Below, piece after piece: positions 41,098 to 43,220 of a DNA stretch of 64,000 nt. Every line of letters begins with the position of its first letter. Position 1 is the stretch's first letter. The DNA is from Promethearchaeia archaeon. GTDB lineage: Archaea; Asgardarchaeota; Lokiarchaeia; Sigyniarchaeales; SOKP01. The stretch lies in contig JAWOCD010000080.1 in the NCBI GenBank assembly GCA_046483985.1, positions 1 to 64,000 of the forward strand. The letters are read 5' to 3'. The notes under the pieces were generated by a model. The model did not search any database. It was not told where the DNA came from and saw nothing but the letters and a program-made list of their open reading frames with translations. Both the position numbers and the translations under genes were made by a program.

Positions 41098-42501
41098 CTA
41101 AAATTGAGACTCATCAATATCCGGCATATCAGCATCGTTTAAAGCTTGCTTGATCGCCTCTTCAGAAAGCTCAAAATCCTCGAGATCTCCAGTCATATAT
41201 TCTTTATACGCTTGTAAATCAAAATGTCCGTGTCCGCTGAAATTAAAGACGATAACCTTTTTTTCATTGTTCTCTTTTGCCTTTTCGGCTTGAACCATAG
41301 CTTCCTTTATAGCGTGGCAAGTTTCGGGGGCAGGAAGAATACCTTCTGCTCCAGCGAACGTTAATCCTGCTTCAATAATCTCCGTTTGGAAGTGTGTTGT
41401 GGCAGTAATTACATCATTATTATAAAGGTTAGATATAATAGGAGCAATTCCATGATATCTTAATCCTCCTGCATGGATTGGTGTCGGAATAAAATTATGC
41501 CCTAAGGTATGCATCTTCAAGATTGGAGCTTGTTTTGCAGAGTCCCCATAGTCCCATCTATACTCTCCTTTACAGACACTAGGACATGCTTTAGGTTCCA
41601 CACCGATAATTTCCACGTCGGGGAGATCTCCACGAATTTTATCTCTTGCAAAAGGAATCATGAATCCGCTAAAATTTGAACCTCCTCCCATACACCCTAT
41701 TAAGATATCCGGTTTCTCTATACCTGCTTTTTTCAGTTGTTTCTTTGTTTCTTGTCCAATCACTGTTTGATGTAAACAGACAAAATTAATCACGCTCCCT
41801 AAAGAATAACGTGCATTATCGCCCCTCAAACTATGTTCTACTGCTTCAGAGATCGCAATCCCTAAACTTCCCGGGTGATCGGGATCCTTTTCATAGTAAC
41901 TCCTTCCAGATTCTGTAAACCGTGAAGGACTTGCATGAACTTCTCCGTTATAGGATCTCATTAAAATTTTTCTACCTGGCTTTTGTAAAAAGCTGGCTCG
42001 GACCATATAAACTGTACATTTAATATTAAATAAATTACAGCCAAATGAAAGAGCCGATCCCCATTGACCTGCACCAGTTTCAGTGACTAACTCGGTCATA
42101 CCATCTTTTTTGGCATAATATGCTTGCGCTAAAGCTGTATTCGGTTTATGAGAGCCAGTTGGGGATAACGATTCATTTTTAAAATAAATCTGAATATCAT
42201 CTCCCACGACATCTAAAACATTCTCTAATGCTAACGCTCGATGTAAGGGTGAAGGACGGTAAGTTCTCGCGTAAATTTCCCTTAGTTTCTTTGGAATATC
42301 TATAAGCGGCTCTTGAGATACTTCTTGCATTACACAACTCTTTGGGAATATCTGAAAAGCCATTTCAGGTGGTGCAGGTTTCTCATCTTGTGGGTTAACT
42401 AAGGGCGTCATAGGTGTAGGTAAATCTGGTAAAATATTTACCCATTGCTTTGGAACCTCGCTTGGTTCAAGCAAGATTCTTCCATTAAAATTGTCAACCA
42501 T
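41098..42501 (-). CDS. trpB2: TrpB2 (stand-alone tryptophan synthase beta-like, indole salvage)
   Basis: GSHKPNTA PLP lysine, TETGAGQWG, GGGSNF, IHAGGLRYHG and FNFSGHG. Confidence 0.96.
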   Translation of the reverse strand: MVDNFNGRILLEPSEVPKQWVNILPDLPTPMTPLVNPQDEKPAPPEMAFQIFPKSCVMQEVSQEPLIDIPKKLREIYARTYRPSPLHRALALENVLDVVGDDIQIYFKNESLSPTGSHKPNTALAQAYYAKKDGMTELVTETGAGQWGSALSFGCNLFNIKCTVYMVRASFLQKPGRKILMRSYNGEVHASPSRFTESGRSYYEKDPDHPGSLGIAISEAVEHSLRGDNARYSLGSVINFVCLHQTVIGQETKKQLKKAGIEKPDILIGCMGGGSNFSGFMIPFARDKIRGDLPDVEIIGVEPKACPSVCKGEYRWDYGDSAKQAPILKMHTLGHNFIPTPIHAGGLRYHGIAPIISNLYNNDVITATTHFQTEIIEAGLTFAGAEGILPAPETCHAIKEAMVQAEKAKENNEKKVIVFNFSGHGHFDLQAYKEYMTGDLEDFELSEEAIKQALNDADMPDIDESQF

Positions 42502-42550
42502 TTTTAAGTAACCATTTTTTAAGTTTTGTTAAGTTTTTTAGTACACGATT

Positions 42551-42582
42551 CGTTATATTATTGGAATTCAATAATATTAACG
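42551..42582. promoter_or_regulatory. Near-perfect inverted repeat in the trpB2 leader (hairpin or operator)
   Basis: CGTTATATTATTG-GAATT-CAATAATATTAACG, with one extra T in the right arm. Confidence 0.55.
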
Positions 42583-42588
42583 CACATT

Positions 42589-42625
42589 AAAAACCATCTT
42601 TTTATCATAGAGATTATAAAAAGAT
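42589..42625 (-). terminator. Hairpin plus U-tract in the trpB2 leader
   Basis: Perfect 10-bp inverted repeat ATCTTTTTAT (42596-42605) / ATAAAAAGAT (42616-42625), followed on the minus strand by GGTTTTT. Confidence 0.5.
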
Positions 42626-42659
42626 AAAAGAAGTAAATCAATCAGGTTTAGTCCAATGC

Positions 42660-42683
42660 AAAAAGGCGTCTATTACCAACGCC
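42660..42683 (-). terminator. GC hairpin plus U5 overlapping the leader-peptide stop
   Basis: The minus strand reads GGCGU-UGGUAAUAG-ACGCC-UUUUU. Confidence 0.55.
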
Positions 42684-42726
42684 AAGGCCACTGCCAGCGC
42701 CAAAAATCTAATTTTACAGGTGCCAT
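42673..42726 (-). CDS. Trp-rich leader peptide MAPVKLDFWRWQWPWRW (candidate trpL)
   Basis: ATG at 42726, five TGG codons among the last nine, tandem TAA TAG stops. A TATA-like ATATATATAT lies ~25-35 nt upstream. The ORF ends ~170 nt before trpB2 on the same strand. Confidence 0.85.
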   Translation of the reverse strand: MAPVKLDFWRWQWPWRW

Positions 42727-42812
42727 ATGCTTTCTAAACCATTATTTAAAATATATATATTATTATTGTCCAAATTATAAAAAGTTAATGGAATAAAAAA
42801 TCCGAAGTCTGT

Positions 42813-43220
42813 TCATTCTCTCCCTTCAAAAATTTTTTCAATGCGATTTGCAGCTACCCTTGATACCTTTACAGTTTTCATTAGGGTATCAATTGTTGTA
42901 CCCGCACAAACTATAACCAAACGCTGTGCATTTGTGATAACTATATATCCATCTTCCGCGCGCACGATGATTTCAGCCAAATCTTCTTGAAACAAGGTTT
43001 TTATGGTAGATTTCCCACTAAGTACTAAACTAGCTGCTAACCCACAAAATGCATCACTCTCTACATCGTAATTGGGTAATGCACTAAATGCTATTTGGTA
43101 CCCTTCAGACGAGACTAAGGCAATTGCTTCAATTTCAGTATTTGAAGTAATAAAGCTAATTTGCGGGCTTATCTTCTCAATATCATCTTCTGTGATACCT
43201 AAATCGGAACCAAACTCCAT
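42813..43220 (-). CDS. Roadblock/LC7 domain protein
   Basis: IEAIALVSSEGY.IA and L.EIIVRAEDGYIVI pattern. Confidence 0.9.
   Translation of the reverse strand: MEFGSDLGITEDDIEKISPQISFITSNTEIEAIALVSSEGYQIAFSALPNYDVESDAFCGLAASLVLSGKSTIKTLFQEDLAEIIVRAEDGYIVITNAQRLVIVCAGTTIDTLMKTVKVSRVAANRIEKIFEGRE

Follow-up and report, generated by a model that had tools for sequence, protein, structure and literature searches.

On the minus strand of a 64,000-nt stretch of Promethearchaeia archaeon DNA (contig JAWOCD010000080.1, positions 1 to 64,000; hereafter the window), a short open reading frame (ORF) rich in tryptophan codons lies upstream of the gene trpB2, and the two are joined by a conserved spacer RNA of ~170 nt. 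The obtained results showed that the structural elements of this leader, namely the hairpins i, ii and iii and a series of U-tracts, exist, are conserved, covary and belong to tryptophan genes. We tentatively interpret the locus as an attenuator that is gated by the leader peptide, in which transcripts would end at the U-tracts, probably aided by the termination factor aCPSF1/FttA, and in which element iii would serve as an added RNA module. We lean towards this interpretation with slightly less than even confidence.

An earlier note on this DNA had placed three hairpins and U-tracts between the leader peptide and trpB2 and had proposed that they form a switch platform. All of these elements were recovered on the minus strand at the positions listed below, and the analysis supports the view that the stretch from the translated, Trp-rich mini-ORF to trpB2 is a conserved regulatory leader. 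The comparison set consisted of 55 non-identical leader-to-trpB2 regions, which were taken from 40 related genomes and 80 public loci and combined in one alignment (A1). The folding energy of the whole 241-nt stretch was not unusual relative to shuffled sequences (z = -0.57); the view that the hairpins are more than chance formations therefore comes from the comparison with relatives and not from their stability. A lack of structural conservation in relatives had been named among the findings that would count against the proposal; such conservation was found, with hairpin i present in 55/55 relatives and covariation in element iii.

Architecture of the tryptophan leader

The features of the locus are as follows:

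42800-42795, minus strand: U6 run ending the upstream Roadblock/LC7 gene
42786-42775, minus strand: promoter element P1 of the leader-trpB2 transcript, resembling a B recognition element (BRE) and TATA box; motif conserved in relatives
42726-42673, minus strand: leader ORF of 17 codons and a stop, with five Trp codons alternating with others
42683-42665, minus strand: hairpin i, with its 5' arm in the last Trp-Arg-Trp codons, the stop in its loop and its 3' arm just past the ORF
42664-42660, minus strand: U5 tract directly after hairpin i
42659-42652, minus strand: conserved 8-nt motif GCAUUGGA ("site A") after hairpin i; ~80% conserved in A1
42629-42618, minus strand: double U-tract (U4 at 42629-42626 and U5 at 42622-42618) in the 5' arm of hairpin ii
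42627-42594, minus strand: hairpin ii, 12 pairs by RNAfold
42593-42589, minus strand: U5 tract after hairpin ii, preceded by GG
42582-42551, minus strand: element iii, a 13-pair hairpin or palindrome
42513-42511, minus strand: GGU Shine-Dalgarno-like element of trpB2, following an A-rich spacer; conserved in A1
42501-41098, minus strand: trpB2, encoding a TrpB-like pyridoxal phosphate enzyme (NF009057, E = 1.7e-193; TIGR01415, E = 2.1e-179)

In most genomes of the same family (~50 relatives), trpB2 is preceded at a distance of 150-180 nt by an in-frame ATG, alternating Trp codons and a stop codon. The promoter motif A-R-S-TTTTTA-W-A precedes the leader ATG by 50-63 nt in 49 of about 52 relatives, and no other mini-ORF between the leader and trpB2 was conserved across clades. 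The leader ORF is evidently real and forms the first cistron of the trpB2 transcript. Synonymous codon choice within the Trp run was skewed. Arginine was encoded by CGN in 72 of 72 cases, as against a genome in which AGR makes up 45% of the Arg codons, and glutamine was encoded by CAG in 51 of 69 cases compared with 22% genome-wide; for proline, CCU was used in 36 of 39 cases. This skew points to a constraint at the nucleotide level. The base following each UGG in the window (42702-42676, minus strand) is almost always C and less often U, which results in a UGGC repeat with a 6-nt period. The repeat and the codon skew together suggest a nucleotide-level signal beyond hairpin i. A TRAP-like reading of the UGG repeats was set aside, as the start, the frame and the stop of the ORF are all conserved.

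Hairpin i consists of six pairs (42683-42678 with 42670-42665), four of them G-C, and its 7-nt loop holds the leader stop codon (42675-42673). Across the 55 relatives, it occurs with 32 distinct arm pairs that all still pair, such as GGCGU/ACGCC, GUUGGC/GCCAAC, GGUCU/AGACC and GGCA/UGCC. Its mean folding energy was -9.6 kcal/mol and its mean z-score against dinucleotide shuffles was -1.54, with z < -1 in 71% of the relatives. The loop contained the stop codon in 30 of the 55 relatives; in 15 the stop was in the 3' arm or beyond it, and in nine it straddled an arm-loop boundary. The same hairpin design, with stems of 7-12 bp, follows the trpD and trpB2 leaders in the GC-richer families of the order. 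By all appearances, the leader ORF and hairpin i are an ancient, order-wide core, and the hairpin is the equivalent of the 1:2 hairpin of the bacterial trpL leader, since its 5' strand likewise comprises the final part of the ORF together with the regulatory codons.

The combination of hairpin i and its U5 tract was the sole match to a terminator pattern in 42400-42900 (one found against 0.2 expected). It fits the pattern of an intrinsic terminator in the window, the U-run being absent in a large clade, and hairpin ii with its U5 tract has a single G-C pair. No strict terminator patterns were found in the GC-richer relatives, in which alternative pairings drawn by eye followed no consistent logic. 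The earlier note had also pointed to a competing GGCG partner for the 3' arm of hairpin i. Such a second GGCG is present in the window within the first Trp-Arg codons (42701-42698), but it is not conserved, as a second exact complement in the Trp run was found in only 22/55 relatives. The motif GCAUUGGA, which also follows the trpD leaders, was predicted to pair with the Trp-run region (mean probability P of 0.38) and never with element iii (0.01). A relay in which the post-stop AUUGGA would pair with UCCAAU in the loop and 3' arm of element iii was rejected, with an ensemble probability of 0.01 and with variants in ~12 relatives that are uncompensated in element iii.

The arms of hairpin ii span 42625-42613 and 42608-42596, and RNAfold extended them to 42627-42594, with an energy of -7.2 kcal/mol and a local z of -1.18. 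The pairs are A-U and G:U except for one C-G. A hairpin at this position was observed in 64% of the relatives (z < -1; mean local z -1.98), with arms that are unrelated in sequence.

The archaeal polymerase terminates at U-tracts without the need for a hairpin. Within the first 65 nt past the leader stop, tracts of four or more U (U4+) numbered 2.45 on average compared with 0.9 in shuffles, a 2.7-fold enrichment. At least two such tracts were present in this interval in 45/55 leaders, and in 39/55 two of them fell within 18 nt, as does the pair at 42629-42618 in the window. The tracts peaked 30-59 nt past the stop, with a secondary peak at 70-79 nt, and T5+ runs at the columns of the U5 that follows hairpin ii were seen in 12-13 relatives. 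The smallest element to which aCPSF1 binds consists of two U4 tracts in at least 18 nt, and a Loki aCPSF1 acts via U-tracts in Methanococcus maripaludis (PMC8716108). The leader thus contains the minimal arrangement of two U4 tracts within ~18 nt, and the host genome encodes an aCPSF1 orthologue (TIGR03675 match at contig C59:37919-39799, 886.9 bits against a cut-off of 580.2). The cluster is consistent in sequence with a termination signal of the aCPSF1/FttA type.

Folding with ribosome footprints masked at each Trp codon had been suggested as a check on the switch, and we performed it in equilibrium form by barring pairing within a 30-nt footprint at each Trp codon or at the stop. The mean probability of hairpin ii was 0.66 in the free RNA, 0.66 with the Trp run masked and 0.66 with a ribosome at the stop; the corresponding values for element iii were 0.79, 0.76 and 0.78. 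Accessibility of the trpB2 start site showed no consistent shift under any mask, and translational attenuation was rejected on this basis. As the masks changed no predicted hairpin, no alternative pairing of the Escherichia coli type was found, and mutually exclusive 2:3 and 3:4 pairings were not detected in these equilibrium predictions. In these models, the leader modules look independent, without competition for each other's strands. This agrees with the earlier view that the logic cannot simply copy E. coli trpL. In a search for an antiterminator, the strand released from hairpin i formed its best duplex with targets that varied from one clade to another. RNAalifold on the full MAFFT alignment recovered only a 4-bp core of element iii because hairpins i, ii and iv (the last described below) are out of register between clades, and pairing of all columns against all gave only trivial matches of the UUGG/CCAA type.

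Element iii and hairpin iv

Element iii is the best-conserved piece of the leader. Its core is a perfect 9-bp stem (42577-42569 with 42563-42555), which extends with one bulged A to 13 pairs (42582-42551). In A1, the apical UUGAWUUCCAAU is nearly invariant, as are its flanks. The 13-pair structure had 85.6% of its alignment cells paired compared with 78.0 +/- 0.9% in shuffles, its covariation score was 0.241 compared with 0.131 (reached by 0/500 shuffles; maximum of 0.092 for slid partners), and 11 of the 13 pairs showed double changes compared with 7.0 +/- 0.9 (0/500), with the significance overstated since the shuffles ignore relatedness. The four variable pairs of the spacer, taken alone, were 63.9% paired compared with 50.8%, with a covariation score of 0.282 compared with 0.137. 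G:U cells outnumbered A:C cells 33 to 11, with C at least as common as G in the leaders. Covariation across orthologous leaders, another check that had been called for, was therefore found in element iii, and the arms of hairpin i vary and yet pair. The covariation, which includes the variable spacer, the excess of G:U over A:C and the lack of a conserved second promoter nearby favour the reading of element iii as an RNA hairpin. A K-turn or a T-loop in the element was dropped on inspection by eye, the defining G-A pairs or purine being missing.

A covariance model, R1, scored 59 bits at 42541-42591, and this was its sole significant match in the host genome. Exactly one site was found in 22/24 genomes of the same family, in each case ahead of trpB2 or trpD; 16 genomes from other families contained none. 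Four genomes carry element iii before trpD, and in these trpB2 has neither a leader nor the element. This distribution shows that element iii is family-specific and Trp-gene-specific and that it travels with the leader. A weak match before a copper-ATPase-like gene (26 bits, E = 0.13) was judged a chance hit, and there was no other candidate for a further regulon member in the genome. Two loci (L006 in genome G016 and L009 in G004) have kept a low-scoring element iii (36-38 bits) and have lost the Trp codons of the leader. Their sequences would fit either decay of the whole module or an element iii that is able to work alone.

A further hairpin, iv (A1 columns 231-246), of the type CACAUC/GAUGUG, follows element iii in 60% of the relatives, with the compensatory variants CACC/GGUG and CAAC/GUUG. 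The 3' strand of this hairpin lies directly next to the Shine-Dalgarno element in one clade. In the window, the corresponding stretch (42550-42520) contains no hairpin iv.

Proposed mode of action

In the attenuator that we tentatively propose, a single 5' leader RNA of ~225 nt, starting at the conserved promoter upstream of the Trp mini-ORF, would carry all three hairpins. Hairpin i would be the ribosome-sensitive element and would report whether the Trp run has been cleared. Because its 5' arm is made up of the last Trp and Arg codons, a ribosome awaiting Trp-tRNA would keep it open, and a ribosome that has finished the leader would let it fold. The cluster of U4-U8 tracts, which in the window comprises the 5' arm of hairpin ii and the U5 tracts after hairpins i and ii, would be the place of premature termination when the supply of tryptophan is ample, a step probably assisted by aCPSF1/FttA. 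Element iii would be a separate, family-specific hairpin with a near-fixed loop, most likely bound by a trans-acting factor, and would provide a second input near the trpB2 start. Our inferences are that transcripts terminate at the U-tracts and that FttA takes part; the route from a stalled ribosome to read-through is the most inferential step. FttA has been described as an analogue of Rho, and its steric exclusion by a coupled ribosome has been stated as a hypothesis (PMC11616081).

Several observations weigh against this attenuator. No coupling could be derived that gives the needed direction, with expression on when tryptophan is scarce; under simple coupling of ribosome and polymerase, a lagging ribosome would increase termination, the opposite of what biosynthetic genes require. 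From the last Trp codons, a ribosome extends no further than ~10 nt beyond the stop, which leaves the main U-tract cluster at 30-59 nt out of its reach. The U5 right after hairpin i is not conserved in a large clade whose 3' arm reads GCCAAY, hairpin ii is weak and absent in about a third of the relatives, and the U-tracts are partly expected at a composition of 40% U. As for element iii, in addition to the overstated shuffle statistics, one of its pairs shows A:C (6) nearly as often as G:U (8). The centre of the element lies 58-70 nt before the trpB2 ATG, the same place that the promoter takes before the leader ATG, and this position keeps an operator or promoter reading alive.

A bolder form of the proposal, which we consider unlikely, is an Asgard tryptophan attenuator with two inputs and no bacterial counterpart. 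A ribosome on the alternating Trp codons would, via hairpin i, gate termination at the U-tract cluster with the assistance of aCPSF1/FttA, and element iii would be a new structured RNA that binds a tryptophan-sensing protein or tRNA-Trp near the start site. The loop sequence UCCAA is complementary to the UUGG of the leader Trp codons and resembles the CCA anticodon of tRNA-Trp. Aragorn detected no tRNA-Trp gene in the whole assembly, in which it found only 22 tRNA genes, presumably because of introns or assembly gaps.

Element iii could instead be read at the DNA level, as the earlier note had suggested. Together with TGYGCA-like words at its 5' edge, it would be the operator of a Trp-responsive repressor, acting at a second promoter just before trpB2 or forming a roadblock. 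In this case, hairpin ii and the U-runs would amount to AT-rich filler, with a leader peptide that works separately or weakly. The element is indeed a long dyad of near-invariant words at a distance from trpB2 that matches the leader-promoter geometry, it is specific to Trp genes, and it persists at low score in the two genomes that have lost the leader Trp codons. In addition, the 5' arm of hairpin ii in the window resembles the TATA motif of P1, and the only described archaeal trp regulators, TrpY and Tar, are DNA-binding proteins (PMC6737238). However, no TATA-like site inside the leader was conserved to a degree comparable with P1 (at most 8/55 sequences per 10-nt bin, against 49/52 at P1). 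The variable spacer of element iii keeps its complementarity through double changes, and the threefold excess of G:U over A:C applies to the sense strand. The asymmetry of the apex (TTGA against TCCAA) is invariable and would be unnecessary for a symmetric dimer, and one site per genome was found when a regulator would be expected to have several. The covarying hairpin iv that follows element iii also argues for selection as RNA. With covarying pairs, more G:U than A:C and no conserved second promoter nearby, the operator reading is less likely than an RNA hairpin, and we regard it as improbable.

We give still less credence to a classical attenuator of the trpL type, in which the strand freed from hairpin i would form an antiterminator with the 5' arm of hairpin ii (or with that of element iii) that AU-rich kinetic folding hides from equilibrium predictions. 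The layout resembles that of trpL, with regulatory codons in the 5' arm, the stop in the loop, and a hairpin and U-run thereafter. Complementarities specific to single clades also exist, for instance one of 11 bp in a single clade, in which the post-stop motif pairs with the stretch following element iii; in other clades, the duplex extends to the Shine-Dalgarno region. The best partner of the released strand nevertheless varies by clade, a mask over the Trp run leaves hairpin ii at 0.66 and element iii at 0.76-0.79, and the post-stop motif never pairs with element iii in the ensemble. A terminator hairpin is, moreover, not required by an archaeal polymerase at U-tracts, as is generally known. 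The dependence on U-tracts is documented in PMC8716108.

Equally doubtful is control of translation or of mRNA stability, in which element iii and hairpin iv, whose spacing from the Shine-Dalgarno element is fixed, would serve as the binding site of a protein or tRNA that governs trpB2 initiation, or in which a stalled leader ribosome would shield the mRNA from 5'-to-3' decay. Both hairpins keep a constant distance to the start codon at trpB2 and trpD loci alike, the near-invariant loop of element iii is what a binding site would be expected to show, and the contact of hairpin iv with the Shine-Dalgarno element in one clade would fit; a preprint also reports Cys-rich mycobacterial leader ORFs that control downstream genes (bioRxiv 10.1101/834739). 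Against it, ribosome masks leave the predicted accessibility of the start site unaffected, the window lacks hairpin iv, no binding factor is known, and the conserved U-tract cluster would be left unexplained.

Relation to known systems and genomic context

Leader-peptide attenuation is a textbook bacterial mechanism. The present locus is similar to trpL (Rfam RF00513) in that a short, Trp-rich translated ORF directly precedes genes of tryptophan biosynthesis, a conserved hairpin encloses the stop and the last regulatory codons, and hairpins and U-runs occur between the leader and the gene. It differs in that its four to five Trp codons alternate with others, whereas trpL has two adjacent ones, in that no mutually exclusive 2:3 and 3:4 pairings were detected, and in its additional conserved hairpin iii and its length of ~170 nt. 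The locus also belongs to an archaeon, in which the polymerase terminates at U-tracts together with aCPSF1/FttA. RF00513 gave no match, and a search of 42300-42950 at E <= 1 returned only a 15-bit chance match to an unrelated long non-coding RNA model.

The factor-dependent bacterial attenuators of the tnaC (Rho), mgtL and speFL leaders share with the locus a leader peptide followed by an untranslated spacer where a general termination factor might act, FttA having been described as a functional analogue of Rho (PMC11616081). FttA is a nuclease and not a helicase. Furthermore, a ribosome parked on the present leader stays short of the main U-tract cluster and, unlike in tnaC, the logic required is read-through when the ribosome is starved of Trp-tRNA.

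The TRP box recognised by TrpY has the sequence TGTACA. TRP boxes lie in the promoter region (PMC6737238), and TrpY of Methanothermobacter thermautotrophicus, which represses trpEGCFBAD and trpB2, provides an archaeal control of the same genes with a palindrome near the gene. Those boxes overlap the promoter, whereas element iii is located ~190 nt downstream of the conserved TATA and shows covariation of the RNA type. A TGTACA overlapping the promoter of the regulated gene was not found here, and there is no conserved promoter near element iii. The sole TGTAC in the window (42546-42542) is not conserved, the relatives carrying ACACAU in its place.

The U-tract terminators of aCPSF1/FttA resemble the tract cluster, with at least two U4+ tracts in a short stretch and the factor encoded in the genome, and the U6 run of the upstream Roadblock gene is of the same kind. 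Here, however, the tracts are found within a 5' leader instead of at the end of a gene, and part of the cluster is paired in hairpin ii. Our literature searches yielded no description of a regulated use of such terminators, and full-text searches yielded no archaeal leader-peptide attenuator. According to a 2019 paper, which adds Tar, little is known of archaeal trp control beyond TrpY (PMC6737238).

What is new in the present analysis is the anatomy of the spacer, its division into a core shared by the order and an element iii confined to the family, and the failure to find an alternative pairing. This anatomy, with the Trp ORF and stop hairpin as the core, a U-tract cluster and a family RNA element that occurs once per genome, can be tested directly. 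The locus provides a natural system for asking if translation and FttA-dependent termination are coupled in archaea, an open hypothesis in PMC11616081. It also bears on the control of what is the sole Trp-forming enzyme in relatives that possibly have no trp operon. Among the genomes of the same family, trpB2 was found in 23/24 and trpD in only 9/24. Many of these Asgard genomes may, judging from gene content, rely on TrpB2 alone through indole or serine salvage, and yet they keep the Trp leader.

The host genome is 4.06 Mb in size with 35% G+C, and the leader stretch is bounded on the minus strand by a Roadblock/LC7 gene (43220-42813) and trpB2 (42501-41098). This neighbourhood is kept in relatives. 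The U6 run at 42800-42795, a few bases past the Roadblock/LC7 stop, provides a nearby case of a simple archaeal U-tract terminator, situated immediately ahead of the leader promoter.

Trp leaders before trpD were found across the order, and a second Trp-rich leader is present in the same genome ~430 nt upstream of the trpDCFBAEG operon (contig C69:35915-35983, plus strand; locus L111:1916-1984). Its ORF has 23 codons, four of them Trp, and it is followed by a weaker hairpin at the stop and by a variant of the post-stop motif, GCAUCGG, directly after which come the words CCAAU and AAUGA. Model R1 found no element iii at this leader. In one genus, an 85-codon ORF belonging to no Pfam family lies between element iii and trpD (L140:1583-1840, plus strand, in genome G003, with an equivalent in locus L118 of G015), so that the leader in that genus would control a small ORF first.

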